From an uncultured Gemmatimonadaceae bacterium (GTDB lineage Bacteria; Gemmatimonadota; Gemmatimonadetes; Gemmatimonadales; Gemmatimonadaceae): DNA of 64,000 bases. Position numbers and translations under genes: made by a program. Location: NCBI GenBank assembly GCA_963817955.1, contig CAWFQK010000003.1:1-64000 (forward strand), written 5' to 3'. Numbering within the stretch: position 1 is the stretch's first letter; each line of letters opens with the position of its first letter. The notes under the pieces were generated by a model. The model saw only the letters and a list, made by a program, of their open reading frames with translations, did no database searches and was not told where the DNA came from. This document shows positions 27,437 to 58,558 of this stretch, piece by piece.

Positions 27437-27517
27437 CAAGATTGCGTTCGTTCGTTCTGGCGCATGATCACCAATGCGAATGTACTCACACAATGGCTGT
27501 GATCATAATCCGCACCA

Positions 27518-29489: not shown

Positions 29490-29539
29490 GTTCCGATATT
29501 ACTTTGCGACACTCGATCTCTCGACCGTTTTGGAGGCAC

Positions 29540-32804: not shown

Positions 32805-32810
32805 TGACGA

Positions 32811-36687: not shown

Positions 36688-36712
36688 TGTCACATCGATA
36701 CTAAGCTTAGGA

Positions 36713-38376: not shown

Positions 38377-38379
38377 CTT

Positions 38380-39027: not shown

Positions 39028-39088
39028 GACCGCCGTTCAGGTATGGTAACCACATGAAACGCGCGCCGCTCGATCGGGACTACAGGGC

Positions 39089-40045: not shown

Positions 40046-40085
40046 CTACGCTCACGGCATTTCCGAATACCGCGGCGCGGCCGTG

Positions 40086-41249: not shown

Positions 41250-43663
41250 CAACGAGCGAGCCGAGGATGGACGTGAACGTTGCGGTGATCTGCATCCAGT
41301 CGCGTTTGTCGGTCGAATCCTTTTCCGGCACGAACACCATGCTGCCCGGCTGCGGTCTTGGCTCCGACGTGAAACCAAACACGTTCCGGTGGTTCGCGTC
41401 TACCTTGCCGTTGGGCTGCGTCACGTATGCGTGCCCACGGTCGCCCTTGATCGACTCGCCGCCAGCGGACCGAATGTAGTAGTCGAGATTCGCTCCTGGC
41501 ACGTACGCGACGCCCACCTGCGAATTCACGGCGCCACGCACCGTTACGACCGGTGTATACCGCGGGATGAGTACCGCATCCCCATCCACGAGCTGAAGAT
41601 TGTCGATGTAGCTCGGGTCGCGGAGCACGTGCGGCAGATCGACGCCCACTCGGCCAATGGAATTCTGCTTACGAACGAAGACGATTCCGTCAGGATATGC
41701 CGCAGTGGTGAGCCCGCCGGCGCGAGCGATGATGTCCGACAATTTTTCGGTTTTCCGAACGAGCGAGTATGCGCCGGGATATTGAACTTCGCCCTCGACG
41801 GTCACCGTTTGCAGCAACTGCCACTCCGGCTGACGCTTGATGAGCACGGCGTCGTAGGGCTGGAGCAGGACCTCGGGCGCTTTCGCGGTCGGCGCCGCAA
41901 AGCCTGGCGGTCCATGGTACTTACCGTCCGCCCCAAGATCCAAGAGATAGCTGGAATCGAGCGGAACGATGGTCGTTACCGCGGTGACTCCCGCCGCCCG
42001 GCTTTCCGGCAGGCGCGCGATCTCGGCGTTGGTGAGCAGAGCGCCCTCCTGCATGCCGCCGGCAAGCAGCACGGCATCGTGCAACGTCATGCCCTCGCGA
42101 AAGGGAATCTGACCCGACTGCCGAACCGCTCCATTCACGGTGATGTAGCGGACGGGCCGAAAGTCAGTGGTCGAGAACACGCTGATCTCGTCGCCATCGG
42201 CGAGACTGAGGTTGTTCACCGGCCGGCCGATGGTGTCGTACACGGCGGTGCGCAGCATCTGTCGCCTTGAATCGGCCGTCAGCCGCGTGACGAGCACTTC
42301 GCCGAGATAACTGTCCGGCTTGAGACCGCCGGCGCGGTGAAGTGCGTCGGATAGTGTCATGCCAGGCGTGAACGCCATGGCGCCAGGCGACCAGACGTTG
42401 CCTGTGACAGCGATGCGATTGGAAACGTGCGGCGCAATCTCCAGCACGTGCACGATATCGCCCGGCCGGAGCGGCTCGGTCGAGTTTTCCAGGGAGCCGG
42501 ATGCGACGTCGAAGAGCACACGGTCCTTGCCGGCCGCGGTGCGCTGTTCAGGCGGCACCACTCGGTCGATCTGCAGGCGCCGCCGGTCGGCCTCGGCGCG
42601 GAATCCGCCAGCCATGCGGAGCAGTTCTCGCAAGGTTTCGTTCGGCTTGAGCTCGTAGGTGGCGGGACGAATCACGGCGCCAGACAGACGAACGCGCGCC
42701 CCCCGCGGCGGCACGAAGACGATGTCTCCCGTCATCACGCGCAGATCGTTGGAGGCATTGCCGGAGAGGAGATAGTCGTAGAGATCGAGCGTGCCCGCGG
42801 TCTGACCTGCACGCCGCAACTCGATGTTGCGCATGTCGCCATTCTGGGTAGGGCCCGCCGCGGCGTACAGCGCACTCATGATCGTCCCGAGCTTGGATAC
42901 GCGATAACTGCCAGGCGTGGCGACGTCGCCGAGCACCGAAACCTGGCTGGTGCCGAGTCGCGAGACCGTCACGTCGAAGTGCGTTGATGCTCCCGCCCCG
43001 CGCCGCACGCCCGAGTACGCACGGCCGAGGCGTGAATACAGCAGATCGTCCAACTGCTGCATGGTGAGGTTGGCGACAGCAACCTGGCCGACATCGGGAA
43101 TGACGACGTAGCCTTCGCGCGTAATAGGTGAGGTTGTACGCTTTCTCGACGTCGCCTGTGAGGATGAGCACGAGCTCGTCACCCGGGCCAACACGATAGT
43201 CGCTCGGCACTGGTCCGGCGAGATTGGCGTCGAACTGCGTGGTCTGGCGGTGAAAGACGTCGATGCCGAACAGCGAAAGACCACTATCGGCCTGCGCCGC
43301 TGTGATGGGCACGGCGGCGAGTGGAGCGTTGGAGAAGTCGGTGGCGGTGCTGAGCCCAATTTGCGTACGGCTTCGAATACGTCAGCAGACATCGCCGTGG
43401 TCGAATCGGCAGTTCCGCCCGGCAGATAGGCGTCAAGCAGCGATGCCGAATACCCCTCCGCTTGCAAACGGGACCGAATCTGATCGGGCGTCATGCCACT
43501 GGCTTGCAACTGTGCCTGGAGCTGGGCGATCGTTTGCGGCGTGGCGCCGCTGATGAGCGCCTGGGCTTGCGCCGGAGTCGGGCGGGTTCTGAGCCAGGGC
43601 GGCCGGTGCGCAAAGAACGAGCAATGCGCCTGAAAGCCAGCCGCGCACGCGAGAAGCGATCAT
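41224..43663 (-). CDS. Large multi-SLBB polysaccharide export protein (KpsD-like OPX), frameshifts in the 5' third
   Basis: Signal peptide at 43663; LFGIDVF, PVPSDYRVGPGDEL, DLYDYLLSG, repeated V.G.V..PG SLBB motifs. Confidence 0.82.
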
Positions 43664-43744
43664 GTGTGGATTGGACTTCGGGAGGAAACGGAATGGGGCA
43701 GGTATGAGGAATGAATAATGTAGGGCGGGAGAGGGGGTGTCTAC

Positions 43745-43832
43745 GGGGGACACGGGACACGGGACACGGGACACGGGACAGCAGCGGGCGGGACGACGAC
43801 TGACAACAACCCACCACCGATCACTGACGACC
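43745..43832 (+). repeat. Heptamer tandem repeats (GGGACAC)x4-5 plus degenerate heptamers
   Basis: gggacac gggacac gggacac gggacac gggacag; related heptamers at 54955-55055 and 57265-57290. Confidence 0.8.
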
Positions 43833-43887
43833 TCACCCGCTGTCTTGGTCGCGCGATCTATGGCCGCCGGCCTGCCGGATTCGTCGG

Positions 43888-45330
43888 TCAGGATCCGCGG
43901 TAGAGTCGTTCGAGGTTGATGAGCTGGACGTCCGCACGGGAGCGCCCGAGCCGCTCCATCTCGGCTGTGAACGCCGGGGCGAACAACAGCAGCTGTGCGC
44001 CGGCAGCCCTGGGCCCGAGCGCGGCACGTGCTTGCTCGAGGTGATGCAGGTGGCCCGAGCCTATGGTCTCGCCTGATTTCGCCTCGCCGATTGCGAGCAC
44101 ACGTCTGGCTGCCGGCTCGGGAGCGCCGCCGTCCGCCGCGACGACGACGTCGAGCTCGTGTTCGACGCCACTGATGGTCACGCTCGACGGCCCGACGTGA
44201 TCCGGCTCGCCCCCCAGGGTCTCTGGGCTTGCGAAGCGACGGACCCAGAGCCGCGCTTGCTCCTCGAACACGGGCCCGCGAACGCGAGCGTCGAAGACCG
44301 TCGCGAGCCGGCGGTCCCAGCTCGCGCGCGGATCGCGATCGCGCAGCAGCGTCGCGTGTGGCTCGAGCACGGCGTAATGGAACTGCAGGAATGGATCACT
44401 GAGCGCGTACGTGGGTCGCCGCGCGCGCACCGGGTCCTCGTGGCGGACGACGAAGCCTGCGGCAACGAGACGTTTGAGCGCCGGGTCCAGGTTCGGGACT
44501 TGGCGGCGGAGCTGGTTCGCGATGGTGCCCGCCGTCACGGCGCCGTTCGCGATCACCGCCAGCAGGCTGTGGTGGAGCGTTTGGCTTGCCGCGGCCAGCG
44601 TCGGATCCTCGGCGAGGAGCGTGGTGGCCTCGTGATGCAGCGTCGCGGCAGGGGACAGCACGCGCTCGGCAACCCAGCGGGGAAAGTCATCCAGGTCGCG
44701 GGGCAAATCGTCATCGACCATGTCGGTGGCATACCCGACCACGCCGTCGATGACGGCGAACACGCGGGCCGCCAACGTCAGGTCGGGATCGTTCCCGAGG
44801 AGCGCGGCAGCCCGCCGGTAGTCAAATGGCTGCATCACGAGCTCGAGGCCTGCGCGGCCGCGGAGCGGTGCTTGTCCGTCCGTCAGCTTGCGCATCATGG
44901 CGATCGCGGACCCGCAGAGGATGAGGCGCGACCGGCCGCCCGCGCCGCGCCGCGATGGCCCGAGGAGCGTCGCGATGATGGAATCGAGCCCAGGCTCTGC
45001 TTCGAGCAAGTAGCCGACTTCGTCGAGCACGACCGGTGTGGCGCCGGCAGTCCCGAGCTGGAGGAGACGCGTGAGGGCGTCCTCCCATCCGGTGAGCGCG
45101 AGAGGACCAACGCCAAGATGGGCACCGAGCGCCTCACCGAGGCGGGTGAGATGGATGGCGGTCTCCGCGCGCGTCGCTTCCCAGTAGAACCCGCGACGCT
45201 CCTTAGTCAGGGCCGCGAGGAGCGTCGATTTGCCAATCCGGCGGCGCCCGTAGACGAGGGCGAGGGTGTGACGATCGACCTCGCTGTCGAGGAATCGGGT
45301 CAGCGGTTCTGTGGCGTGGCTGATGTCCAT
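43888..45330 (-). CDS. COG1672-like (archaeal-type) ATPase with wHTH and C-terminal DUF234/PD-(D/E)xK-like nuclease region
   Basis: VYGRRRIGKSTLL Walker A, VVLDE, LILCGS, PLRGR, Y.LSDPFLQFH, GPVFEE, ELDVV..IGEAK. Confidence 0.82.
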   Translation of the reverse strand: MDISHATEPLTRFLDSEVDRHTLALVYGRRRIGKSTLLAALTKERRGFYWEATRAETAIHLTRLGEALGAHLGVGPLALTGWEDALTRLLQLGTAGATPVVLDEVGYLLEAEPGLDSIIATLLGPSRRGAGGRSRLILCGSAIAMMRKLTDGQAPLRGRAGLELVMQPFDYRRAAALLGNDPDLTLAARVFAVIDGVVGYATDMVDDDLPRDLDDFPRWVAERVLSPAATLHHEATTLLAEDPTLAAASQTLHHSLLAVIANGAVTAGTIANQLRRQVPNLDPALKRLVAAGFVVRHEDPVRARRPTYALSDPFLQFHYAVLEPHATLLRDRDPRASWDRRLATVFDARVRGPVFEEQARLWVRRFASPETLGGEPDHVGPSSVTISGVEHELDVVVAADGGAPEPAARRVLAIGEAKSGETIGSGHLHHLEQARAALGPRAAGAQLLLFAPAFTAEMERLGRSRADVQLINLERLYRGS

Positions 45331-45373
45331 GGGCTTGGATGCGTAGGGTGCGGACCAAAGTACACCATGGCCA

Positions 45374-45529
45374 ATACTATTGCCAACAATAGTATCTAAT
45401 GCGATACTTTGCCCAAGCGGTCAGTAGAAACCGGGCTCGGAGCCCAACCCACGCCTCACGATCGCAGCGTCGTCGTTTATAATGCACATTTGTCGTTTAT
45501 AGCAGACAATTGTATGTTATAGGCGACAA
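45374..45529. promoter_or_regulatory. AT-rich operator region: 9-bp IR ATACTATTG-N4-CAATAGTAT and three tandem 20-bp quasi-palindromes
   Basis: IR 45374-45395; units 45470-89, 45490-509, 45510-29 with consensus TTGTCG-nn-TATA-nn-CGACAA. Confidence 0.6.
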
Positions 45530-46103
45530 GGCTCGATCTGCTCGAACAAACGGGCATCGTGACCTACGTCGGCGCCGGTCGCCAGCGTCAGGTCCAATTC
45601 CGCCGCGACCACCCGCTCGCGCCGGCACTCGAGGCACTCTTCACCGCAGAGAACACTACCTTCGCCGAGTTCCTCGATGCGCTGCGTGCGGCTGCAGCGA
45701 GCATCCCGGGCGCCACGGCAGTATGGCTCGAGGGCCCCCTCACGACCGGGACCGACACGCTGAGCGAGCCGGTGGCGTGCTTCGTCATCGGAGCGCCTGC
45801 TCGACTACCGAGGATATCCACGGAACTCCGGGACGCGTTCGCTCCCATCGAACGCATGTACGACGTGACGATCCCGATCCATGGACTCACTCGAAGCGAG
45901 CTCGCGACGCGCGATGAAGGAGGCGTGGAGTCGCTCCTCGATGCGATCCTTCTTGCAGGCACACCCCCTGCCGCATTCCACCCGATCGCCCGCGAACGAC
46001 TTGCGCGGCAGAGCCGCATCACGGGGCACGGCGATCACGATGCCCACGCCCTCGCGACTGCATCGGTACTGGCCGATCTGGTGGCGACGGGACACGAGAT
46101 GCC
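45530..46103 (+). pseudogene. Fragment of a wHTH + nucleotidyltransferase-like antitoxin/regulator, truncated at both ends
   Basis: LDLLEQTGIVTYVGAGRQRQVQFRRDHPLAPALEALF (end of a wHTH) followed by AVWLEGP..; no proper start; ends at the REP-like element. Confidence 0.45.
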
Positions 46104-46131
46104 TGTCATCCTGAGCAAAGCGAAGGATCTC
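46104..46131 (+). repeat. REP-like half element TGTCATCCTGAGCAAAGCGAAGGATCTC
   Basis: Reverse-complement relative of the element at 17839-17872. Confidence 0.65.
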
Positions 46132-46174
46132 TGTGACCGGCGGGCCGACCGGTCGCGATAACCGCCCGATGGCG

Positions 46175-46280
46175 ATCCCGCTACTTGTCCATCGCGGCCA
46201 GGTCGGCCGCCTCCCGCTTCCGCCGCGGCGATGAGTTGGGAGAGCTGCGTCTTGGCTTTGTGGATGGTAACGGGTTTCAC
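46175..46280 (-). pseudogene. Phd/YefM antitoxin remnant
   Basis: VKPVTIHKAKTQLSQLIAAAEAG is the typical Phd N-terminus; decays afterwards, no toxin follows. Confidence 0.65.
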
Positions 46281-46330
46281 TGTGCTCCCGAGTAGATGCG
46301 CCCTGAGCGCTGAGGGTCGGGCAACCCTCG

Positions 46331-47617
46331 TCAACCGAAGATCAAGCGACTCCGGCCGGAAAGGGCGTACTCAATCTGCGCGTTTTTTACAGGTCGCCGG
46401 GGGAGGACGAGGACGTAGCCCTCGGCAACGAGGTAGTTCACGATCTTGGATGCGGCGCTCTGGCCTAACCCCCACATCGCGCGGAGTGTGGTCTGCGTCT
46501 GCGTCGCGCCCGGCGCCCTAACTCCCCACGTCCTGAGGTGGGCCGCCCACCCTTTCTCGCTGATGCCGGCGAGCGCCTGGTCGTACCGGCGCTGCAGGAT
46601 CGGTCGCAGCTGCTCAAGCCCGAGGGGACGGGCCGGCTCGACGAGTCCGAGGAGCGGTTTCACCCCGTCCTCGAGCGCGCGCAGGAAGCCGCGGAGATCA
46701 CCGCCAAAGAGGTCGTAGAGCGCCTCGACCGCGACAGACTCGACCGGCGGGAGAACCGGCTGCCTCGAGTCCGCCCGAAGATACGTGTAGCGAGCCGTGA
46801 GTAGCGCGTGGACCTCGGCGACATGCAGGGGCTCGAGGTGGAGGACGCGCGCGTGGTTTCGCACCTGCTGGCTCCCAAGGGCGGTGTTGACAGCGTCAGT
46901 CGTGCCGACCAGCACGTAGTGCAGCCCGTTGTGCAGCAGCATTACATCCCGAAGCGTCTTGAACATCTCGCCGGCGCGCTTGGCGTCCGGGTCGCTCAGG
47001 TTTTCAAGGTTGTTGAGGTGCAGCAGAACCCCGCGCGCGTCGGACTCCGCTACGATCATGCGCATGAGATCGCGCATGACGCGTGGTCCGTCGATCATAA
47101 GGTCCTTCGGCGTGACGACACTTGTCCCCCGGGAGCCACCGATGCCGCCGATGCCGGGGATCGATAGACTGACACCGACTGAGGAGAGGCGCGTCGCGCG
47201 TACGAGGATCTGAGCGTCCTGCATCGCTCGGTTGTCGCCTGAGTACGGGCGGTTCGCCAGGATCGTGTCGTACAGCCCGCCGAGCACCCGCGCGAAGAGG
47301 GTCTCCGGCGTATCGGTCTGCAGGACTGGCACGATCGAGTCGGTGGTGAGGAATCCGTCCTCCTGCGTCTGCGCCTTCAGCTCCTTCACGAGCGTCGTCT
47401 TCCCGACGCCGAGGGCGCCGGCGACCCCCTGCACGCTACCGTCATCCCCGGCATCCCGGATTGTCCCGAGCAGTTCCTTGAGTTCGGCGGCACGCCCGAC
47501 GAACAAGCTCAGCGGTCGGGGAGAGTTCGACCCTGCTTCCAGCTCCCGCTGGAAGAAGGGGGACTGGCTCAGGTTGAAGATGCTCCAAGTGGTCGGAAGC
47601 GGGCGGTGGTCAGCCAT
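46331..47617 (-). CDS. P-loop AAA+-like ATPase with C-terminal winged helix
   Basis: LFVGRAAEL, GALGVGKTT, Walker-B-like LLHLNNLE, VLVGT, GDLR sensor II, TQTTL..WGLGQSAASKIV..L..EGYV. Confidence 0.78.
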   Translation of the reverse strand: MADHRPLPTTWSIFNLSQSPFFQRELEAGSNSPRPLSLFVGRAAELKELLGTIRDAGDDGSVQGVAGALGVGKTTLVKELKAQTQEDGFLTTDSIVPVLQTDTPETLFARVLGGLYDTILANRPYSGDNRAMQDAQILVRATRLSSVGVSLSIPGIGGIGGSRGTSVVTPKDLMIDGPRVMRDLMRMIVAESDARGVLLHLNNLENLSDPDAKRAGEMFKTLRDVMLLHNGLHYVLVGTTDAVNTALGSQQVRNHARVLHLEPLHVAEVHALLTARYTYLRADSRQPVLPPVESVAVEALYDLFGGDLRGFLRALEDGVKPLLGLVEPARPLGLEQLRPILQRRYDQALAGISEKGWAAHLRTWGVRAPGATQTQTTLRAMWGLGQSAASKIVNYLVAEGYVLVLPRRPVKNAQIEYALSGRSRLIFG

Positions 47618-47783
47618 GGTATTCCCTAGACGATCGGAAAGGCGGAATGACACTACGGTATTCCATGTAGGCGGAATACCGCCACGGAATGACGTCAGAT
47701 CGGCTGGTTCTGGAATATCCACATGTGGACGCGGGTGTGGGGTCCAGGTTTCCGCGAACACTAGGATAATCGCATTCGCCGCA

Positions 47784-48653
47784 CTACCGGCGAACTCGAC
47801 GCCCCACCGCCGCCGTAATGCGCCCTACGAAAACAGCCGTAGCCACGCCGAGCAGCGCACCCGCGATCATGTCCACCCCGTAGTGGAATCCGCCGTAGAC
47901 CGCGCCCACGCCTACCAGTAGCGCTACTCCCCACACCGCGTACGACACGCTCCGCTGCCAGCGCCAGGCGAGCATGGCTTGCGTGACGGTCACCGCCATG
48001 TGCGACGACGGGAACGCCGCGCCGCGAGAGGAGCCGGCCGCAAGCAGGTGCGTCGCGAGCGAGCGGAACGGGCCCTGGGGGATGCCAGCTGGCTGGGTCC
48101 ATAGGTACCGAGGGCCCTGCACGGGGAATAGCGCAAAGATGGTCCAGCAAACGGTGTAGGTCACCGTGAGCGCCAGAATGGTCTCGCCGAGGGCTTTCCG
48201 ATTGCCCTTGAGAAAGAGCAGCAGCGGCGGGACAAAGATGACCGGGTAATACGCGAGGTAGCCGGCGTGGAGGAGCTCGCTCAGAGCGGTGAGCGGTAGA
48301 GCGGGCGCCAGGGTGTGGGCAGGCTGGGTGTGGAAGAGGGCTAGTTCCCAGGCCTGAATCAGGGTGTCGTGGTAGGTGGTGCCGAGGGTGGTAATGAGTT
48401 GGGGGAGCTCGGCATAGAGGATGGGGCAGACGAGCAACGGGACCAGGGTGGCGAGGCTGTTACTCTGAGCCCCGCCTGCACTCAAGACAACTGCGAGTAC
48501 CAACAACGCCAGGTGGACGAGCGCCAATATGGCGTGCCCACCAGCGGCCAAAACGCTCCCGGACAGGGCCAGGTAGCCCGCCAGCCAGACGAGGGCCAAG
48601 CTGCCTGCGTCAGCGCTGATTTCGCGTAAAGTCGTCTCGCTCCCTACATTCAC
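47784..48653 (-). CDS. PAP2-superfamily membrane enzyme, Aur1/IPC-synthase-like (start uncertain)
   Basis: ELLHAGYLAYY, FPVQGPRY, AAFPSSH, VYGGFHYGVD; multi-TM. Confidence 0.78.
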   Translation of the reverse strand: MNVGSETTLREISADAGSLALVWLAGYLALSGSVLAAGGHAILALVHLALLVLAVVLSAGGAQSNSLATLVPLLVCPILYAELPQLITTLGTTYHDTLIQAWELALFHTQPAHTLAPALPLTALSELLHAGYLAYYPVIFVPPLLLFLKGNRKALGETILALTVTYTVCWTIFALFPVQGPRYLWTQPAGIPQGPFRSLATHLLAAGSSRGAAFPSSHMAVTVTQAMLAWRWQRSVSYAVWGVALLVGVGAVYGGFHYGVDMIAGALLGVATAVFVGRITAAVGRRVRR

Positions 48654-48657
48654 CCGC

Positions 48658-49800
48658 GTGTCCGTTGAAATCATCCCAGTAGAGTCGTCGCGCGACCTGC
48701 GCCGGTTCGTGGATCTGCCCTGGAAGATCTATAACCGGAAGGACCACCCGCAGTGGGTCCCGCCGCTTCGCATTGCCGTCCGCGATGCGCTCGACAAGAA
48801 GAACAATCCGTTCTACCGCGACGCCGACCGGCAGCTCTTTCTTGCGCTGCGGAGCGGTGTGCCGGTGGGCCGCATTGCCGCGATCGAGAACCGGGCGCAC
48901 AACCGTTTCCACAACGACCGCGTCGGCTTCTTCGGCTTCTTTGAATGCCAGGACGACCAGGAAGCAGCCACCGCGCTCTTTGCGTCGGCCGAAACATGGT
49001 TGCGAAGCCGAGGCCTGAACATAATGCGCGGGCCGACGAATCCGTCGACGAACCACGAGTGCGGCCTGCTCGTGCGCGGCTTCCGCTGGCATCCCATGAT
49101 CATGACGACGTGGAATCCGCGCTACTACTCCACGCTGGTCGAGGGCGCCGGCTTTTCCAAGGCAAAGGACCTGCTCGCGTACTTCTTTCCCATGCAGGGC
49201 GAGCGGGCGTTCGAGCTGCCGGAACAATACCGCCGCCACGCCGAGCGTGCGCTCAAGGGCGCCAAGCTCACCTTCCGCGACATCGACCTCAAGAAGTTCG
49301 ATCCGGAGGTGGAGCGCTGCTGGGAGATCTACAATTCAGCGTGGGATGACAATTGGGGATTCTTCCCCATGTCGCACGAGAGCTTTCTGCACGAAGCCAA
49401 GGTGCTCAAGTACATCTGTCTGCCGCAATTCACCTTCATGGCGGAAGTGGACGGCGAGCCGGCAGGCTTCATGATCATTGTGCCCGACTTTCACCACGCG
49501 TTCAAAGCGGTGGGAAATGGACGGCTGTTCCCCACCGGCCTGCTCAAGATTCTGGCGGCCAAGCGCCGGCTGCGCTCGGGCCGAATCATGATCCTGGGCG
49601 CCAAGGCCGAGTTTCGATCGCGCGGCATCTTTGCGCTATTCGCGCACGAGATGTTCCGCCGAGGAAAGGCCTACGGGGCAGTTGGCGCCGAGGCGTCGTG
49701 GATTCTCGAGGACAACGACAAGCTGGTGAAGCCGATAGAGGCGTTGGGGGCAAAGGAGTACAGGCGGTGGCGGTTGTACGACCGGACGATCGCGCGTTAA
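48658..49800 (+). CDS. YghO-like GNAT-fold protein; candidate bacterial ceramide synthase
   Basis: FVDLPW.IY..P.WVPPL, GRIAA, GFFGFFE, RGP, E.GLLV.GF, YN.AWDDNWGF.P, SWILEDN; directly upstream of spt. Confidence 0.75.
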   Translation: MSVEIIPVESSRDLRRFVDLPWKIYNRKDHPQWVPPLRIAVRDALDKKNNPFYRDADRQLFLALRSGVPVGRIAAIENRAHNRFHNDRVGFFGFFECQDDQEAATALFASAETWLRSRGLNIMRGPTNPSTNHECGLLVRGFRWHPMIMTTWNPRYYSTLVEGAGFSKAKDLLAYFFPMQGERAFELPEQYRRHAERALKGAKLTFRDIDLKKFDPEVERCWEIYNSAWDDNWGFFPMSHESFLHEAKVLKYICLPQFTFMAEVDGEPAGFMIIVPDFHHAFKAVGNGRLFPTGLLKILAAKRRLRSGRIMILGAKAEFRSRGIFALFAHEMFRRGKAYGAVGAEASWILEDNDKLVKPIEALGAKEYRRWRLYDRTIAR

Positions 49801-49832
49801 TTGATGACATGCTTTGCCAAGGGTGACAGATT

Positions 49833-51032
49833 GTGAGCATCTTCGATAAATGTGAGGGTTATACGCTGGCCCGGGACCACGAAGCCGTGGGCCTGTATCC
49901 GTATTTCCATCCGATCGAAGAAGCCACCGCCACGGACGCGAAGATTCGCGGCGAGTGGAAGATCATGGTGGGCTCGAACAATTATCTCGGGCTCACACAT
50001 CACCCCAAGGTGCTCGAAGCAGCGCGCGCCGGGCTCGCGAAGTACGGTAGCGGTTCCACGGGCAGCCGTTTTCTCAACGGCACGCTCGACCTGCACTACG
50101 AGCTCGAGGCGCGGCTCGCCGCGTTGTTTCGCAAGGAAGCAGCGCTCGTGTTCACCACGGGGTATCAGGCCAGCATTGGCGCCATCGCGCCACTCGTCGC
50201 CCGCGGCGACCATCTCTTCCTGGATCGCCTGGACCACGCGTCGCTCGTAGACGGTTCGCGTCTATCGCATGGCGAAGTGCACCGCTACGGGTACAATGAT
50301 TTCCTGTCGCTCGACAAGCAGTTGGCGAAACTTCCGGCCGGCGCAAACAAACTGGTGGTGAGCGACGGTGTATTCTCGATGGAAGGGAGCATCGTCGATC
50401 TGCCGAATCTGGTGAAGGTATCGAAGCAGCACGGCGCGCAGGTAATGGTCGACGAGGCACACGCGCTCGGGGTGCTCGGCGACGACGGAGCGGGAACGGT
50501 GAGCCACTTCGGGCTGCACGACGGGGTCGATCTCGTGCTTGCCACGTTCTCCAAATCGCTCGCCTCGGTGGGCGGTGTCGTTGCCGGCTCCGACATGGTG
50601 ATCCACTGGCTGCGTCACCATAGCCGCGCGCTCATGTTCACGGCGAGCATGCCCCCGGCGTCCGTCGCCGGCGCACTTGCCGCGCTCAGTGTGATGCAGG
50701 ATGAGCCGGAACGGCGCCTGCGATTGTTGGCGAACACCAATCGGGTGGCCGAAGGGCTACGATCCCTTGGGTTCGACATTGGGCAGACGCAGACGCCGGT
50801 CATCCCGGTGTTGATCGGCGATCTGGAGAAGGTGCTGCAGGTATGGCGCGCGTTGTTCGACGACGGGATTTTCGCTCACCCGATCGTGCCACCCGCGGTG
50901 CCAATGAACGCGTGCCGGATCAGGATCTCGATGTCGGCGGAGCACACGGACGAGCAGGTGGACCGGGTGTTGGAGGCGTTCGCGAAGATTCGATCGGCGT
51001 TGGGCGACGAACGATGGGCGTTGTCGTCCTGA
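49833..51032 (+). CDS. spt: Alpha-oxoamine synthase, most likely serine palmitoyltransferase
   Basis: GLYPYF..I, GSNNYLGL, GSRFLNGT, DHAS, DGVFSMEG, DEAH, TFSKS (PLP Lys); N-terminus resembles Bacteroidota SPT rather than BioF/Kbl. Confidence 0.78.
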   Translation: MSIFDKCEGYTLARDHEAVGLYPYFHPIEEATATDAKIRGEWKIMVGSNNYLGLTHHPKVLEAARAGLAKYGSGSTGSRFLNGTLDLHYELEARLAALFRKEAALVFTTGYQASIGAIAPLVARGDHLFLDRLDHASLVDGSRLSHGEVHRYGYNDFLSLDKQLAKLPAGANKLVVSDGVFSMEGSIVDLPNLVKVSKQHGAQVMVDEAHALGVLGDDGAGTVSHFGLHDGVDLVLATFSKSLASVGGVVAGSDMVIHWLRHHSRALMFTASMPPASVAGALAALSVMQDEPERRLRLLANTNRVAEGLRSLGFDIGQTQTPVIPVLIGDLEKVLQVWRALFDDGIFAHPIVPPAVPMNACRIRISMSAEHTDEQVDRVLEAFAKIRSALGDERWALSS

Positions 51033-51042
51033 ACGGCATAAC

Positions 51043-52131
51043 GTGAAGGTCGCGCTCATCTGCGACTGGTACCATCCGCGCCTTGGCGGGATCGAGCTTC
51101 ACTTGCAGGATCTCGCGGCGCGGCTGACGGGGGCGGGACACGAGGTGGTGGTGATCACGCCCACGCCCGGGCTCAGCATGGTCGACGGCATCCGCGTGCG
51201 GCGAATAGATGCGCCCCGTGCGCCGAGATTCGGGTTTCTCGTCACGGCGGGCGGGGTACGCGCCATTGGCAGGGCACTCGCCCAGGAAAAAGTGGATGTC
51301 GCCCATTGTCACGTGAGCATTGTGTCTCCCGCCGCACTCGGTGGCGCGAGTGAGGCACAGCGGCTCGGCGTTCCGACCGTGTTGACCTTCCACTCCGTGG
51401 TTCCGCAGACGCGATTGCTGGCGCGGGGCGTTGGGCTCGCGATGGGCGCGGGGCGTTGGAATGCCTGCTTCTCCGCGGTGAGCAATCGCGTAGCGCGCGA
51501 CGTGCAGCCGATCGCGGGTGCCAAATCGATTTCGATCTTGCCGAATGGCATCGATGCAGCATTCTGGCGCGTGGAGCGTGCACCACGCCAGAGCGAGACA
51601 ATCGAGCTGATCTCGGTGATGCGGCTCAACCCTAAAAAGCGACCGATGGCGTTGGTAAACGCGCTGGCCGATGGGCAACTGGCAACGCGTGATGTTCGGC
51701 TGCGAATCGTTGGGGATGGGCCGGAGCGGGCGCGCGTGGAGCAGGCGCTTGAGCGACGCGGGCTGGGTGACCGCATTCAACTGCTCGGGCGGCGGACACG
51801 CGGGGAGATCCGTGCGCTGTTCGCGGAAAGCGACGTGTTCGTGCTGCCCACAGTGCGCGAATCGTTCGGGCTCGCGGCACTAGAGGCGCGGTGCGCCGGG
51901 TTGCCCGTGGTCGCCATGGCGGCATCGGGGGTAGCCGAGTTGATCGAGCATGGGCGAGAGGGACTGCTGGCGCGGAGCGACAGGGAATTTGCGACACATG
52001 TCGCCCGACTATCGGCTGACACTGATCTTCGCGGGCGGATTGCGTCGAACAACAGGGCGACCGTGCCGGCGTGCGAGTGGGGATATGTGATCGAACGGCA
52101 CCTGGCTCTCTACCGGAGTGCGCAGGCGTAA
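51043..52131 (+). CDS. GT4-family glycosyltransferase (PimA/PigA-like)
   Basis: DWYHPRLGGIE, LPNGID, IVGDGPER, ESFGLAALEARCAGLPVV. Confidence 0.88.
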   Translation: MKVALICDWYHPRLGGIELHLQDLAARLTGAGHEVVVITPTPGLSMVDGIRVRRIDAPRAPRFGFLVTAGGVRAIGRALAQEKVDVAHCHVSIVSPAALGGASEAQRLGVPTVLTFHSVVPQTRLLARGVGLAMGAGRWNACFSAVSNRVARDVQPIAGAKSISILPNGIDAAFWRVERAPRQSETIELISVMRLNPKKRPMALVNALADGQLATRDVRLRIVGDGPERARVEQALERRGLGDRIQLLGRRTRGEIRALFAESDVFVLPTVRESFGLAALEARCAGLPVVAMAASGVAELIEHGREGLLARSDREFATHVARLSADTDLRGRIASNNRATVPACEWGYVIERHLALYRSAQA

Positions 52132-52142
52132 GGCGTCGTCCG

Positions 52143-53825
52143 CTATCGCTGCGCCTGCCTATTGGCTCGGGTGCTGATCCGTTCGGCCACGTCGAAGACG
52201 CGCATCAGGGTGCCGATGGCATTCTCGATCTCTTGCTCGGGACGGTCGCGAACGTGCTCGCGTATGCTGGCCTCTACTACCTCGCGAAGGATCTGATACT
52301 CGCGATGAATCTGCTCCTCGCCCCAACCAAGCCGAGCGCGCTGGGCGCCGTGCAGCTCGCAGATGACCTGCTGAATATGCCCGCCGTCGCGCAGCAACGC
52401 AGGCGAATCAATCCGACTCTGCTCGTATGTCGACAGAGATTCCGCGATGTCGGCGAGGAGCGTCACGCCATGGTCCTTCAGATCAGCCTCGGTGAGCAGG
52501 CCCTTACCGGGGAAGGCGGGATCCTCGGCCATCCGCTGTGCGTGCCGCGTTATGATCTCGTCGGCGTTCGCTAACACCGTCAACATGACCGGCGCCAGCG
52601 TCTGCTGGGGCAGGAGCTCCGGCTCGGGGATCGCGGCCAGCTCGTCGGCGGGTTTCAGCGGCGGAAGCCAGAGCGTGAATGTGGAGCCCTTGCCCAACTC
52701 GCTCCGTAGCGTGATGTCGCCCCCCATGAGGCGGGCGAATTGCCGGCTGATCGTGAGCCCGAGTCCAGTTCCGCCGCGGGTGCGCTTGTGACCTGACTCC
52801 GCTTGCACGAACGGCCGGAACACCGCTTCCTGCTCGCTCGGCGCAATTCCAACGCCTGTGTCCTGGATGCTGACGAAGACCCATGGGCCTTCGCCGGTGA
52901 GCTGCGTCCGCTCCGGCGTCTCGCTGGTGGATCCACAGTCGATGATGATCTGTCCACCGCCTGCCGTGAACTTCACGGCGTTCGACAGCAGGTTCACCAA
53001 AATCTGCCGCACGCGATCCTCGTCGCCGCGGTAGACCATGGGGACTTTATCGCTGCAACGGCGCTCCACACGCAATCCCCGCTCCGATGCCTGCGGCCGC
53101 ACGAGCCCGAGAGCGGCGTCAACTGCGTCCTGCAATACGGCGCGCTCCGCCTCCACGGTGACCTGCCCCGCCTCCACTTTGGCCAGATCGAGGACGTCGT
53201 TGATCAAGCCGAGCAGGTGGGCGCTGCTCGAGCGCACACGCTCGAGTTGGTTGCGTTGCGCCGGGTTGACGGGCCCGGCGATTCCCATCTCCAGGATCTC
53301 GGTGTAACCGATGATGGCGTTGATTGGCGTGCGAATCTCGTGACTCATCATGGTCAGGAACTCGCTCTTGGCCTGGTTGGCCCGCTCGGCTTCCATCCGC
53401 GCCGCTTGGGCCTCTTGCAGCAGCCTCTGTCGATCAGTCACGTCCACCACCGTCGCCACCCCACCGAACACACCGCCGCCATCGCGGATGGGGAGCGCGT
53501 AGATGAGGACCGTGCGACGCTTGCCGTCGGCTGTTTCGAGCTCCACCTCCTCTTCGGCAACCATCTCCCCGGTGCGGAGCGCGCGGGCCAGAGCCCACTC
53601 GTGGGGCTGGACGGGTCCGCCGGAATTCGGCCGGTCAGCCTGCGGGTTGCCGGCTGAGCTAGTCCGTTCAGGGAACCGCAGATAGCCGTTCGAGATCACC
53701 TGCGCGGCGCGGTTGGCCTCGACGAGGCGTCCCTTTGCATCGCAGATGAAGACTCCGACCGGCAAGGCGTCGAGCACAGCGCGGAGCCTGCGGCGCTCCA
53801 GCTCGACGGGGGACTCCTGATCCAT
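52143..53825 (-). CDS. PAS sensor histidine kinase with a C-terminal helical RsbRD_N-like domain instead of a receiver
   Basis: PAS, FLTMMSHEIRTP H-box, QILVNLLSNAVKFT, DTGVGI, GGTGLGL; tail ending HGAQRARLGW..EQI.REY. Confidence 0.85.
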   Translation of the reverse strand: MDQESPVELERRRLRAVLDALPVGVFICDAKGRLVEANRAAQVISNGYLRFPERTSSAGNPQADRPNSGGPVQPHEWALARALRTGEMVAEEEVELETADGKRRTVLIYALPIRDGGGVFGGVATVVDVTDRQRLLQEAQAARMEAERANQAKSEFLTMMSHEIRTPINAIIGYTEILEMGIAGPVNPAQRNQLERVRSSSAHLLGLINDVLDLAKVEAGQVTVEAERAVLQDAVDAALGLVRPQASERGLRVERRCSDKVPMVYRGDEDRVRQILVNLLSNAVKFTAGGGQIIIDCGSTSETPERTQLTGEGPWVFVSIQDTGVGIAPSEQEAVFRPFVQAESGHKRTRGGTGLGLTISRQFARLMGGDITLRSELGKGSTFTLWLPPLKPADELAAIPEPELLPQQTLAPVMLTVLANADEIITRHAQRMAEDPAFPGKGLLTEADLKDHGVTLLADIAESLSTYEQSRIDSPALLRDGGHIQQVICELHGAQRARLGWGEEQIHREYQILREVVEASIREHVRDRPEQEIENAIGTLMRVFDVAERISTRANRQAQR

Positions 53826-53931
53826 CGGACGGCCATCTGGTTTTGGGTGACCCAGGGGGGTGACCAGAGGGAGGCTTTCGCAGAAAGCACACCAGTAGGA
53901 AGAGCGCGGTGGCAAGCGGGTGGAGGAAACC

Positions 53932-55023
53932 CTACCGCGGCACCGTCGCTCTCCGCCCCAGTGCATGCGCCGAGATGAACCCGTAGCCGATTCCAACGGC
54001 TGGCAGCATGAAGCAGACGTGCTGTACGAGTGCCATCGCCAGCGCTTGATCCGCTCCGACGCCGAGTTGTCGGTAGGCGAAGAACACACTCGCTTCGTAG
54101 GTGCCGAGGTTTCCCGGAGCCACGGGCAGCATTGAGGCAAAGATCATTGCGGCAAGCACGAGGAGCGTTCCGGCAATGCCGACGTCGACGCCGAACGCAT
54201 GTTGCACGGCCATGATCGCGAGGCCGGTGACAGCCTTCATCGCCGCCACCCAGCCCAGGGATAACGCTGAGCGCCGGACGCTTCGTAGCGCGTCGAGTCC
54301 TGCGGCCCATTTCGCGGCGAACAGGCGCAGGCGAGCGACTGTGCCGCGATCGTCAGATGTGGTGATTCGCTGGTGATTGTGCGCAACAACCACAAGAACT
54401 ACGAACAGCACCGCGACACCAATGCACACAATAGAGACAGTAGCACGCATCCAGACTGGCAACGGAACCAGCAGCGCGACGAGCAGGAAGAGGGTGACCT
54501 TCACGATCCCCTCTCCGAGTTGATCGAGTGCCAGCACGGATAGCGCGGCATGGTCGCCGATGCCGCCGCGCCGGGCGAGCAGGAAGACGGCAGACGCATG
54601 CCCGCCGCCGAACGGCATGGTGTTCATGAGCGCCGAGGAGGTGGCGGCGATCTCGAACATGCGGGGGGCGGGGGGGCGCGGAGTGGTGCTGGGGATTAGC
54701 GAGCGCCAGAGGCCGCTGAGGCACAGGAGGATGGTCGCGTTCGCGAGGATGGCGGTGAGAAGCCAGTAGGGGTTCGCCGCGGAGAGGGTGGTGGCTAGGC
54801 GAGACCAGGCGATCTGGCGCGCAAGGATGACTACGAGCGCGGAGGTGGCGAGCCAGGCGAGGAGGAGAGCGAGGCGGAGTCGGGTTGGGCTCCGGGTGTT
54901 GACTGGCTGGATGTCGCTGGCTGCTCCGTAGCGGTCGGCCCACCGGTCGGCGAGTTTCGGGTTTCCAGTTGTGAGTTGTGCGTTGTGAGTCTCGTGTCCC
55001 GTGTCGCATGTCTCGTGTCTCAC
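53932..55023 (-). CDS. LPG_synthase_TM (MprF-N/AglD-like flippase) membrane protein; start uncertain
   Basis: W..L..ANP.WL, MNTMPF.GG, D.L.E, LPVAPGNLGTYE; multi-TM. Confidence 0.78.
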   Translation of the reverse strand: MRHETCDTGHETHNAQLTTGNPKLADRWADRYGAASDIQPVNTRSPTRLRLALLLAWLATSALVVILARQIAWSRLATTLSAANPYWLLTAILANATILLCLSGLWRSLIPSTTPRPPAPRMFEIAATSSALMNTMPFGGGHASAVFLLARRGGIGDHAALSVLALDQLGEGIVKVTLFLLVALLVPLPVWMRATVSIVCIGVAVLFVVLVVVAHNHQRITTSDDRGTVARLRLFAAKWAAGLDALRSVRRSALSLGWVAAMKAVTGLAIMAVQHAFGVDVGIAGTLLVLAAMIFASMLPVAPGNLGTYEASVFFAYRQLGVGADQALAMALVQHVCFMLPAVGIGYGFISAHALGRRATVPR

Positions 55024-55055
55024 ACCCGTGTCTCGTGTCTCACACCCGTGTCTCT
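54955..55055 (+). repeat. Degenerate heptamer repeat tract (TCTCGTG/CCCGTGT/GTTGTGA)
   Basis: gtctcgtgtcccgtgtcgcatgtctcgtgtctcacacccgtgtctcgtgtctcacacccgtgtct. Confidence 0.7.
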
Positions 55056-55059
55056 TTAC

Positions 55060-55977
55060 TCACAGTCGCCCGTTCGCGGCATACCACCGGTACGTCTCCC
55101 CTAACCCTGACGCCAGGTCGATCTGCGGCGTCCAGCCGAGGTCCCGACGGGCTGCGGCGTTCGAGCAGAGCCAGTACTGGGGGAGACTCAATGCCACCTT
55201 GTGCGACGTGAGCAGCCCGGTTCGGCCCGTGAGCCGCGCATAGGCGTCACCCACGGCGGCGCCCAGCGCGACCATGGGGACTGGAATCTGGACGTCCATC
55301 GACAGTTGCTTGCTCATGCAATCTGCGACGGCGTGGAACAGATCGCCCCACGTCACCGGGGCGTCGTTGCAGAAAAAGAACGTCTGTCCAGCAGCGGAAG
55401 GCTCCTGTGCGCAACGAAAGATGGCGTCCACCAGGTCGCGCACATGGACGATCGCGAACTTCTGGTCGCGGTTTCCCGCATGGATCGCGATGCCGCGGCG
55501 GGCCAGCCGAAACACCGGCAGAAAGTCTCGATCGTAGGGACCGTAGACCGCGGACGGCCGCGCGATGACGTGCGGGACGTCTGAAGCACGCACGCGGTGC
55601 TCGGCGTCGAGCTTGCTGCGACCGTAGGCTTCGACGGGCGCTGGTAGCGTTTCTTCGGTGATCGGCGTGTCGGAAGCCGCCGGTCCGGCCGCGGCCTGGG
55701 ACGACACGTAGACAAGTCGCTTCACGCCACCGCGTTTCGCTGCCGCGATCACGCGCGAGGTGAGCTCGACGTTCGAGGTCCAGAGCTCGCGCTCGGTCGG
55801 CGCACGCGTCGCACCCGCAACATGCACGACGACGTCGGCGTCGTGGACGAGAGACTCGAGGCCGCCAGAAATGAAGTCAGCGCGCTGAATGGGGCGTGTC
55901 TCCCACCCCGCGCGGGCAAAAGTCTGCACGACGTGTCGTCCAATGAACCCGTTCGCGCCAGTGATTGCCGCAATCAT
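55060..55977 (-). CDS. Extended SDR, NAD(P)-dependent epimerase/reductase; candidate keto-sphingolipid reductase
   Basis: ITGANGFIG, VVHVAG, YVSSQAAAGP, YGRSK, RPSAVYGP. Confidence 0.8.
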   Translation of the reverse strand: MIAAITGANGFIGRHVVQTFARAGWETRPIQRADFISGGLESLVHDADVVVHVAGATRAPTERELWTSNVELTSRVIAAAKRGGVKRLVYVSSQAAAGPAASDTPITEETLPAPVEAYGRSKLDAEHRVRASDVPHVIARPSAVYGPYDRDFLPVFRLARRGIAIHAGNRDQKFAIVHVRDLVDAIFRCAQEPSAAGQTFFFCNDAPVTWGDLFHAVADCMSKQLSMDVQIPVPMVALGAAVGDAYARLTGRTGLLTSHKVALSLPQYWLCSNAAARRDLGWTPQIDLASGLGETYRWYAANGRL

Positions 55978-56158
55978 GCGTTGCAAATTCGCTGATTGTG
56001 TTGCGGCGGGGTAGTGCCGGGCTCGGGGGGGGGCGTGCGGGCTGTCAGTCATCAGTGACTGAGGACCCCGACAGCCCTCGGACTGATGACTGAAGACAGT
56101 CGGCTCTGTTCCGCTAAAGCGTTGGTCCGGGCGCCCATCCAGCAAAGCTTCAGCGATG

Positions 56159-56965
56159 TCAGCCCTTCCGGCCCCCCGAGCTAGGCGGCAGGTGCTCCCC
56201 TCGGCGCAAAGCATGTCGAAGCGCCTCCTGCTCCTGCAGGAGCGGTCGCCAGTACGCCTCGTCGGCCTGACGTTCGCGAGCCTCCTCCTCTTCCAGAGCA
56301 ACGCGGATCGCCATGAGCGACCCGCCCTGGGCCAGAGCCTGTACGGCGAACCCGGTCGCCTCGCGCCCAGCGGCCACTTCTCGCGCCGCATTCGGCGCCC
56401 GGCGCGCACAGTCCACGAGCGCTTCTGGGGTGCGCAGTTCGCGCAACCAGAACGCGATCCGGCTGTCGGTCGGCTCACGTGCGAACTCGGCGTAGTGTGC
56501 GTCTACGAGCCGACGGACCATGGGCCAGTCTTTGTCGCGGCGCGTCTTCTTGGCGGAGACCAAGTCCTCGAGCCCGATCACGTCTACCTCGCCGATCTCG
56601 TCGAGGATAGCAATGGTGCGCCGCGCCCAACACGTATCGAAGTCTGGTACGTTCCGCATGACCGCCATGATGTCGAGCCGCATGCCGTCTGCGGCTGCAC
56701 ACCGGAAGTGCACGGAGTGCCCGCGCTCCAGATATTCGCGCGTGAAGGGGGGTACCGCGGTGACGGTTGCGCCCAGCTCATCAAGTGCCGCCTGTAGGCG
56801 GCCGAGGTTCTCCGGGTGTGCGTAGATCGCGAGATCAACGTCTCGGCTAAACTCCAAGCCGCCGTAGAGAATGCACGCCTGGCCGCCCATGAGGAGGGCG
56901 CGGACGCCATGCCGTCGCGTCGTCGTGAGCACCGTACGCACCGGAGTCGGCATCGAAGTCGTCAT
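56159..56965 (-). CDS. Pol-beta-superfamily nucleotidyltransferase-like protein (AbiEii/DUF6036-like)
   Basis: LLMGGQAC..YG...SRDVD, RLDIM, DLVSAKKTRRDKDW. Confidence 0.7.
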   Translation of the reverse strand: MTTSMPTPVRTVLTTTRRHGVRALLMGGQACILYGGLEFSRDVDLAIYAHPENLGRLQAALDELGATVTAVPPFTREYLERGHSVHFRCAAADGMRLDIMAVMRNVPDFDTCWARRTIAILDEIGEVDVIGLEDLVSAKKTRRDKDWPMVRRLVDAHYAEFAREPTDSRIAFWLRELRTPEALVDCARRAPNAAREVAAGREATGFAVQALAQGGSLMAIRVALEEEEARERQADEAYWRPLLQEQEALRHALRRGEHLPPSSGGRKG

Positions 56966-57167
56966 GCAAGCGCCCCCCGAGCGCGTTGAACGTGACCCAT
57001 AGACGGCAGGACTCTCGCCACCGCGCGGCGGGGGTCAGGTGCATCCAGTCCGCGAACTCTTCGCCGTATATCCGTATCCAGTCCTCGCGCGTGAGCGCGC
57101 TGGGGCGCAGCGCCAGGACGGGCTCGATGAGCGTTGTCAGGGGGGACGCGGGGGGGCGTTCCGTCAT
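56847..57167 (-). CDS. Small hypothetical protein, putative partner/antitoxin of the nucleotidyltransferase
   Basis: W..LTPAARWRES..LW motif; TATCAT 6 nt before ATG; overlaps the downstream gene. Confidence 0.5.
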   Translation of the reverse strand: MTERPPASPLTTLIEPVLALRPSALTREDWIRIYGEEFADWMHLTPAARWRESCRLWVTFNALGGRLHDDFDADSGAYGAHDDATAWRPRPPHGRPGVHSLRRLGV

Positions 57168-57288
57168 GTCCTTATGATACCTGGACAAGCGGAGCCCTGC
57201 CAAACGCGGGCGACGCACCGGCTGTTGAGGGGTCTGGATGTCGCTTGCTGTTCCGTACCAGTCGCGTGCCCCGTGTCTCGTGTCTCGT

Positions 57289-58359: not shown

Positions 58360-58558
58360 GGGAATTTGATTCTTCAGACACCACTCGCTTCCAAAGGGTT
58401 TGCACAAAGGCTTTGCACAAAGGAAGCTTCGTGCCTCACACGGACGTCCGGGTGCGGCGCTTACACGGACGTACGGGTGCAGTTGGGAAATAGTTCCCTG
58501 GCGCATTCGTCGCCGATCGACGCTCTGGTATCTGTCGTGCAAAGCTGAGCAGTCGATC

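Follow-up and report, generated by a model that had tools for sequence, protein, structure and literature searches.

The closest described relatives of the enzyme considered here are yeast Aur1, the catalytic subunit of inositol phosphorylceramide (IPC) synthase, and its bacterial homologue BT_1522 from Bacteroides thetaiotaomicron. Aur1 is strictly specific for phosphatidylinositol (PI) as the donor lipid, and none of its residues H255, H294, and D298 can be mutated without abolishing activity in vitro (PMC13133130). BT_1522, which is 26% identical to AUR1 (E 1e-15) and homologous to it, carries out head-group transfer to dihydroceramide, its deletion leads to loss of phosphoinositol dihydroceramide only and is complemented in Bacteroides by the BT_1522 gene alone, and the sole contribution of the CDP-alcohol enzyme BT_1523 is to make the phosphatidylinositol-phosphate (PIP) donor (PMC9246714). 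Here we describe a gene of the PAP2_3 family in a stretch of 64,000 nucleotides (the window, to whose positions all coordinates refer; Table 1) from an uncultured Gemmatimonadaceae bacterium, comprising positions 1 to 64,000 of contig CAWFQK010000003.1 in assembly GCA_963817955.1. Based on its sequence, its modeled structure, and its neighbors, we propose that the gene probably encodes an Aur1-type phosphosphingolipid synthase of the inner membrane with an active site that would face the periplasm. The original prediction for this gene, made from the DNA letters and a list of open reading frames, had assigned it to a route distinct from those of Bacteroides, described as CDP-alcohol transferase routes. 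That part of it does not hold, because the head-group transfer in Bacteroides is itself carried out by an AUR1 homologue (PMC9246714), and the route is therefore of the same kind and not a new one. The gene is thus likely to be a new example of an enzyme type and a reaction already known from yeast and Bacteroides.

The predicted protein has its likely start at the ATG at 48674, because the N-terminal sequence MISTDT that follows from it is common to close homologues in the orthologue alignment. The open reading frame was initially taken to end at 48660, which misses its first 14 nucleotides. Its start had also been described as abutting that of the neighboring gene, which encodes an acyltransferase of the GNAT fold, and this is correct but understated: the ATG of the PAP2_3 gene on the reverse strand and the GTG of the GNAT gene at 48658 on the forward strand are divergent and overlap at their 5' ends by 17 bp (48658-48674), so that there is no intergenic promoter region between the two. 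The same 17-bp overlap is present, as judged from match coordinates, at four further loci (L036, L037, L039, and L042). A promoter and terminator scan of positions 47500-49100 found no promoter-like (sigma-70-like) site and one terminator-like site, which equals the expectation from shuffled sequence.

With respect to family, the protein matches Pfam PAP2_3 with 62.4 bits (E 6.4e-17, cut-off 27) and Pfam PAP2 with a lower score of 37.7 bits that is also above the cut-off. The score for PAP2_C, the sphingomyelin synthase (SMS) family, is 23.6 bits and lies under the cut-off of 27, and those for the NCBIfam phosphatase equivalogs, which are undecaprenyl-diphosphatases, are 28.3 and 28.2 bits versus cut-offs of 229 and 250. 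A homologue search with the protein scored 8000 candidates, of which 1374 had E<=1e-3. At E<=1e-30 the family comprises 923 clusters among 1.84 billion representatives, a number that rises to 3631 at E<=1e-10. The named homologues and loci are almost all from Gemmatimonadota, and they include a partial homologue on a 569-bp contig (L094) of Roseisolibacter sp. H3M3-2. The source assembly (4.53 Mb, 9 contigs, 94% complete) contains six PAP2_3 matches, and the window protein is the only one of them above the cut-off. It also contains 13 canonical PAP2 matches, 11 of which outscore the window protein on the PAP2 model, so that housekeeping phosphatase roles seem to be covered by other genes.

The resemblance to Aur1 extends over most of the protein. 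A profile of 34 orthologues, which are 28-60% identical to the window protein, aligns its positions 21-275 to residues 46-311 of yeast AUR1 (9vj3_A, 9ivc_A) with E 0.022, and the shared motifs, given as AUR1/profile, are FPaaPPWY/FPVxGPxY, AFPSLH/AFPSSH, and HHYFVD/FHYxVD. The phosphatases PgpB and LpxE give better profile E-values (5e-6 and 1.7e-5, respectively) but are aligned over the last 53-66 positions only. When the single sequence was searched against the PDB sequences, only weak matches to the core were obtained, LpxE with E 0.021 and PgpB with E 0.11, in addition to a collagen match that was discarded as chance; AUR1 was reached only with the profile. The AlphaFold2 model of the protein (pLDDT 91.7, pTM 0.89) contains about eight transmembrane helices, and with it Foldseek ranks Aur1 first and second (9vj4_A, E 3.4e-5, TM 0.59/0.62 over 251 columns; 9ivc_A, E 1.4e-4), with LpxE (E 9.9e-3 over 167 columns), PgpB (E 2.2e-2), and SMSr (rank 35) behind. 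The structural alignments made with VIA-align have Z-scores of 19.4 and 19.1 for Aur1, with 255 of the 296 residues aligned (model about 26-296), compared with 17.3 for LpxE (162 aligned), 15.7 for PgpB (170 aligned), and 11.3 for SMSr. The Aur1 match takes in the whole architecture, including the three N-terminal helices, whereas the alignments to LpxE, B. subtilis PgpB, and G6PC1 start near residue 100. The prediction of an Aur1/IPC-synthase-like protein, as opposed to a generic PAP2 protein, is therefore borne out by the family model, by the near full-length alignment of the orthologue profile to AUR1, and by the best structural match.

The motifs FP..GPR, AAFPSSH, and GFHY.VD that had been pointed out in a multi-helix membrane protein are all three present (Table 1), and the family scores and number of homologues show that this is no coincidence. 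In the 34-orthologue alignment P184, V185, G187, P188, F221, P222, S223, H225, H264, Y265, and D268 are invariant, while R189 of the GPR element is not, being replaced by Y, N, W, or E among the orthologues. The predicted catalytic triad of H225, H264, and D268 is conserved in 34 of 34 sequences and aligns to H255, H294, and D298 of Aur1, with an equal spacing of 39 residues between the two histidines. In PAP2 hydrolases the C1 motif is KxxxxxxRP, with a conserved Lys and Arg, and the C3 motif is SRxxxxxHxxxD, with a conserved Arg. In the orthologue alignment the C1 Lys and Arg are absent, as F180 and G187 occupy those positions, and the C3 Arg is likewise absent even though HxxxD is present: where B. 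subtilis PgpB has SR, the aligned residues are G257/A258. The predicted cytoplasmic segments of the model contain 12 Lys and Arg residues and the periplasmic segments 3, from which we predict that both termini are cytoplasmic and that the triad is on the periplasmic face. A periplasm-facing triad fits the periplasmic location of the ceramide reductase CerR in Caulobacter, where serine palmitoyltransferase (Spt) and the bacterial ceramide synthase (bCerS) are cytoplasmic (PMC11087976).

The window protein shares with Aur1 (9vj3/9vj4/9ivc) the N-terminal helices and the catalytic core, the triad with its spacing and surrounding motifs, the FPxxxPxY loop, and the absence of the C1 Lys/Arg and C3 Arg. 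It differs in that Aur1 has 401 residues with a long cytosolic tail and the window protein has no such tail, in that F263 takes the place of Aur1 H293, and in that Aur1 partners with Kei1 in the eukaryotic Golgi whereas the window protein would reside in the bacterial inner membrane and is expected to have no such partner, none having been searched for. The members of the SMS family (SMS1/2 and SMSr; 8ijq) are likewise enzymes of the PAP2 fold, with a glycerophospholipid as the source of the phospho-head group that they place on ceramide, and a C3-like HYxxD is common to them and the window protein. However, the window protein is below the PAP2_C cut-off and its structural match to SMSr is the weaker one. 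Further catalytic residues have been proposed for SMSr, and these are described as lacking conservation in Aur1 (PMC13133130). The PAP2 phosphatases, represented by B. subtilis PgpB (5jki), A. aeolicus LpxE (6ebu), and E. coli PgpB, have in common with the window protein the five-helix core, the C2 His, and the C3 His/Asp, but the window protein lacks KxxxxxxRP of C1 and SR of C3 and has three extra N-terminal helices.

Caulobacter uses CpgABC to make its anionic head groups. As a reference for the genes around the PAP2_3 gene we used the ceramide cluster of E. coli BL21(DE3), whose genes correspond to those of Caulobacter as follows: yghO/ECD_02850 to CC_1154, ECD_02852 to CC_1164, and ECD_02854 to spt, CC_1162 (PMC9386255). 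The divergent neighbor had been put forward as a candidate ceramide synthase, and this is supported by its alignment to BL21 YghO, in which the two proteins, both of 380 residues, match end to end (32% identity, E 6e-63, 380/380 residues). The look-up of the GNAT protein in Atlas returned only generic 'GNAT family' clusters, and its identity as bCerS was settled via the BL21 cluster. The next gene encodes a synthase with 38% identity to BL21 Spt (E 4e-93, end to end); its NCBIfam score for SerpalmtaseCFB is 484 bits, which does not reach the cut-off of 640 but is above those for bioF (388) and Kbl (353). A nearby gene on the reverse strand encodes a 305-residue reductase that matches the 304-residue BL21 Epi (ECD_02852) over the full length (30% identity, E 2e-37). 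Its start is likely Met168 of the long open reading frame 55060-56478, as suggested by the Rossmann motif and by where the alignments begin. The end-to-end matches to YghO, Spt, and Epi indicate that the locus holds the Spt/bCerS/CerR trio of the pathway found in Caulobacter and BL21, and all three homologues are within 8 kb in the window and linked to the PAP2_3 gene. No genes of the AcpR or AasR type were seen at the window locus. A PAP2_3 gene is absent from the annotated BL21 cluster and from the five dihydroceramide genes listed for Caulobacter (PMC9386255). BT_1522, which we compared by its published figures, resembles the window protein as a bacterial AUR1 homologue with the same proposed reaction and the same need for PIP synthase and myo-inositol-1-phosphate synthase (MIPS), but it is encoded in an inositol-lipid cluster (PIP synthase, a PgpA-like protein, and MIPS; PMC9246714), whereas the window gene is with ceramide genes and the PIP synthase-MIPS pair is on another contig. 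The family of the window protein is also more distant from AUR1.

The linkage to the ceramide genes is not confined to the source genome. Among 151 sampled Gemmatimonadota genomes, with a threshold of E<=1e-10 for PAP2_3 homologues, the PAP2_3 protein is encoded in 81 and the GNAT protein in 96, and GNAT is present in every one of the 81 that have the PAP2_3 protein. The two genes are at most 5 kb apart in 73 of the 81, with a median gap of 1067 bp and the usual order spt-bcerS-cerR-PAP2_3. They are on the same strand in 71 of these 73, with PAP2_3 downstream in 71/71, and the divergent form is found among the sampled genomes only in the source genome and one other (G077). These genome counts include one unpublished genome (G057), and a second (G097) is in the GNAT count only; without them the figures are 80/150 for PAP2_3, 94/149 for GNAT, and 72/80 for adjacency. 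A colinear one-strand arrangement of the genes for Spt, GNAT, epimerase, and PAP2_3 is seen at 9 of 14 fetched loci, and among the 80 named loci from public assemblies, GNAT is found at 65, Spt at >=50% identity at 43, the epimerase at 50, and all three at 45. The colinear operon is also present on two Eisenbacteria contigs (L107 and L110), and a contig from Vicinamibacteria carries the epimerase and PAP2_3. The co-occurrence with spt that the original prediction had offered as a check is thus seen as a strong linkage to spt, bcerS, and cerR across genomes.

At 12 of the 80 named loci there is a more distant synthase ('SPT-like 30-50%') that was not counted as Spt, and in both of the two that were checked bioF scores above SPT in NCBIfam. 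In a sister clade (L046, L048, L052, L053, L055, L069-L072, and L076) the synthase adjoining PAP2_3 is 33-38% identical to the window Spt, with bioF slightly above SPT in two checked; this synthase may be a divergent Spt or may use another amino-acid substrate. In a FastTree phylogeny of 91 orthologues, midpoint-rooted and read without its support values, the window protein falls in a clade in which almost all loci have the divergent form, which indicates that the window arrangement arose from the operon by rearrangement. The distribution of the genes is patchy within the family to which the window belongs, with the PAP2_3 protein in 3 of 31 genomes and GNAT in 5 of 31, and the only other genome sampled from its genus encodes neither protein. 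A comparison of that genus with window positions 41000-60999, using genome G131, showed no synteny and matched kinase-domain fragments only.

Based on these data we now put forward a hypothetical pathway. Spt would form 3-ketosphinganine, the bCerS-type acyltransferase would N-acylate it, and the CerR-like reductase would convert the product to dihydroceramide, to which the PAP2_3 enzyme would add the head group. In this last reaction, His264, activated by Asp268, would attack the phosphodiester of the glycerophospholipid donor, so that diacylglycerol leaves while the enzyme retains the phospho-head group in bound form. With the aid of His225, the C1 hydroxyl of ceramide would then take up this group, and the product would be a phospho-X-ceramide. 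The enzyme that we envisage has about eight helices with both ends in the cytoplasm.

Several observations weigh against this proposal. The sequence match to AUR1 is marginal (the profile E-value given above), identity in the structural alignments is 17-19%, PgpB and LpxE beat AUR1 on profile E-value over the shared core, and the Z-score of LpxE is near that of Aur1. Hydrolases and transferases alike have the His-His-Asp triad, which thus does not separate them, and the presumed rule that a protein without the C1 and C3 basic residues is a transferase comes from the definition of the hydrolase motifs and from the comparison with Aur1. Fifteen of the 96 GNAT-bearing genomes have no PAP2_3 protein, in 8 of the 81 genomes with the protein its gene is away from GNAT or on another contig, and 12 of the 80 named loci have no ceramide gene in the fetched flank. 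As the window locus is rearranged, the PAP2_3 gene need not be co-transcribed with the ceramide genes, and the literature searched contained no enzymatic or lipid report on the protein, its orthologues, or the phylum. Nor did it contain a link between Gemmatimonadota and sphingolipids, in a search that did not cover the study defining bCerS and CerR or supplements. The original prediction had left room for a ceramide-phosphate phosphatase, and the main rival to our proposal is a lipid phosphate phosphatase of the sphingolipid pathway, one that could act, for example, on ceramide-1-phosphate or a sphingoid-base phosphate with the same triad and with water as the acceptor. The protein belongs to the PAP2 superfamily and is above the PAP2 cut-off, its weak NCBIfam matches are to undecaprenyl-diphosphatases, PgpB and LpxE have the best PDB profile E-values and Z-scores close to Aur1, and linkage to ceramide genes fits a phosphatase equally well. 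Three DAGK_cat lipid kinases in the genome could moreover, in principle, supply a phosphorylated substrate. None of the three, however, is on the contig of the window, and the NCBIfam scores are far under their cut-offs. The phosphate-binding Lys/Arg of C1 and Arg of C3 are replaced in the window protein, the phosphatase matches cover the C-terminal core only while Aur1 is matched with its three N-terminal helices, and phosphatase functions could be served by the 11 canonical PAP2 paralogues. We therefore consider a phosphatase unlikely, and of the two functions first suggested it is the synthase that is favored by the absence of the C1 and C3 basic residues and the phosphatase that is weakened.

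It is very unlikely, in our judgment, that the substrate of the enzyme, as a transferase or hydrolase of the PAP2 fold, is an envelope lipid other than a sphingolipid (for example lipid A, a glycerophospholipid, or a polyprenyl phosphate), with its proximity to ceramide genes reflecting shared regulation of envelope functions. A gene set of the polysaccharide or LPS type is indeed in the window at 27-43 kb, and the flanks that lack a ceramide gene and the genomes in which PAP2_3 is away from GNAT would agree with such a role. On the other hand, about 4 kb with two STAND/AAA-type open reading frames, which are not found in the loci of relatives, separate the polysaccharide genes from PAP2_3, GNAT is present in all 81 carriers with PAP2_3 downstream in all 71 same-strand cases, and the operon recurs in Eisenbacteria.

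For the Aur1-type synthase that we favor, the identity of the head group X depends on the donor lipid. The source genome encodes a PIP synthase of the CDP-alcohol transferase type (NF045883, 183.4 bits, cut-off 170) directly upstream of MIPS (contig C4, 16692-18799; locus L035:7692-9799), and this pair makes PI plausible as the donor. MIPS is found in 142 of the 151 sampled genomes, including 80 of the 81 with the PAP2_3 protein. Inositol lipids may thus be general in Gemmatimonadota, and for the same reason the co-occurrence of MIPS cannot discriminate an inositol head group. One genome of 99% completeness (G027) has the operon and no MIPS match, which argues against inositol as a universal head group. 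The same mechanism with phosphatidylethanolamine or phosphatidylglycerol as the donor, to give ceramide phosphoethanolamine or ceramide phosphoglycerol, is included in our proposal as a possible variant that we hold only tentatively. It would account for G027, and it is consistent with the low identity to the PI-specific Aur1. The specificity of Aur1 is ascribed to the shape of a pocket obtained by docking, with no sequence signature for PI that could be checked (PMC13133130), and a transfer of specificity determinants to the window protein at the residue level was abandoned, as the pocket description offers no residues to transfer. Against this variant are the strict PI specificity of the closest solved structure (PMC13133130), the inositol lipid made by BT_1522, the only characterized bacterial homologue (PMC9246714), the PIP synthase-MIPS pair, and the presence of MIPS in all but one of the genomes with the protein. 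We therefore favor inositol as X, with ethanolamine or glycerol being possible.

Other genes of the window may belong to the same pathway. The run bcerS-spt-GT4 ends with a glycosyltransferase gene that follows spt after a gap of 10 bp. A homologue is found at 18 of the 80 named loci, adjoining spt at loci of the window type, and BshA, MshA, monoglucosyl-diacylglycerol synthase, and PIGA are among the weak family matches of the protein. Its acceptor could be ceramide or the (inositol) head group. Directly downstream of the CerR-like gene is a gene for an MprF-type flippase-like membrane protein, a homologue of which is present at 22 of 94 fetched loci; it abuts GT4 at window-type loci and is directly downstream of PAP2_3 at five loci (L051, L059, L060, L065, and L066). 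The GT4 and flippase-like genes thus accompany PAP2_3 in this clade, and the former hints at a glycosylated product. A 218-residue open reading frame at 54353-55009 on the reverse strand is inside this gene in another frame, is Arg/Pro-rich, and was rejected as spurious. In the Caulobacter study, the transport of the ceramide intermediate or product across the inner membrane has no assigned protein (PMC11087976), and we infer that the flippase-like protein is a candidate lipid flippase of this pathway. A more elaborate scheme, in which a glycosylated phospho-inositol ceramide is made as a bacterial counterpart of the glycosyl and mannosyl inositol phosphorylceramides (GIPC/MIPC) of fungi and plants and the flippase-like protein carries out this transport step, appears doubtful.

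A histidine kinase gene lies between GT4 and the flippase-like gene, gave no tblastn match in the loci of window-type relatives at E<=1e-8, and is probably outside the ceramide pathway. The first ~105 residues of its open reading frame are Cys/Trp/Arg-rich and look non-coding, so that its start is probably Met106, near 53825. The two AAA/STAND-like open reading frames just downstream of PAP2_3 seem to be specific to the source genome, as they are not found in the loci of relatives.

Table 1. Positions of the PAP2_3 gene, its motifs, and the surrounding features in the window.
Feature	Position	Strand	Evidence or content
PAP2_3/Aur1-like membrane phosphotransferase (putative), 296 aa, ATG start	47784..48674	(-)	ORF, Pfam, orthologue alignment, structure model
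Motif FPVQGPR, residues 183-189	48108-48128	(-)	
Motif AAFPSSH, residues 219-225	48000-48020	(-)	
Motif GFHYGVD, residues 262-268	47871-47891	(-)	
bCerS-type N-acyltransferase (GNAT fold), 380 aa	48658..49800	(+)	weak Pfam Acetyltransf_1; homology to YghO
Spt-like alpha-oxoamine synthase, 399 aa	49833..51032	(+)	NCBIfam; homology to E. coli BL21 Spt
GT4 glycosyltransferase, 362 aa	51043..52131	(+)	Pfam Glycos_transf_1 110 bits, Glyco_transf_4 81 bits
PAS/HisKA/HATPase histidine kinase	52143..54140	(-)	Pfam
MprF-type flippase-like membrane protein, 363 aa	53932..55023	(-)	Pfam LPG_synthase_TM 111 bits; TIGR00374 51 bits
CerR-like NAD-dependent epimerase/reductase, 305 aa	55060..55977	(-)	Pfam Epimerase 102 bits; homology to BL21 Epi
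Two AAA/STAND-like ORFs	43888-45330, 46331-47761	(-)	MarR-like winged-helix matches, all below Pfam cut-offs
Surface-polysaccharide gene set	about 27500-43500		GT2, GT9 heptosyltransferase-like, methyltransferase, Wzx-type flippase, Wzy/O-antigen ligase-like, Wzz/GNVR chain-length protein, GT2, GT4, Poly_export/SLBB exporter

Gemmatimonadota are abundant in soils and sediments, and few of them have been cultured. If our proposal is correct, roughly one in two of the Gemmatimonadota sampled here (81/151 genomes) would make phosphosphingolipids via a further branch of the Aur1 family, and Aur1-type head-group transfer in bacteria would extend beyond the gut Bacteroidota, which would matter for the interpretation of environmental lipid biomarkers. 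The window protein would also provide a small, single-subunit model for the fold of an antifungal drug target, and the flippase-like protein that recurs in its neighborhood offers a concrete candidate for a bacterial sphingolipid flippase.

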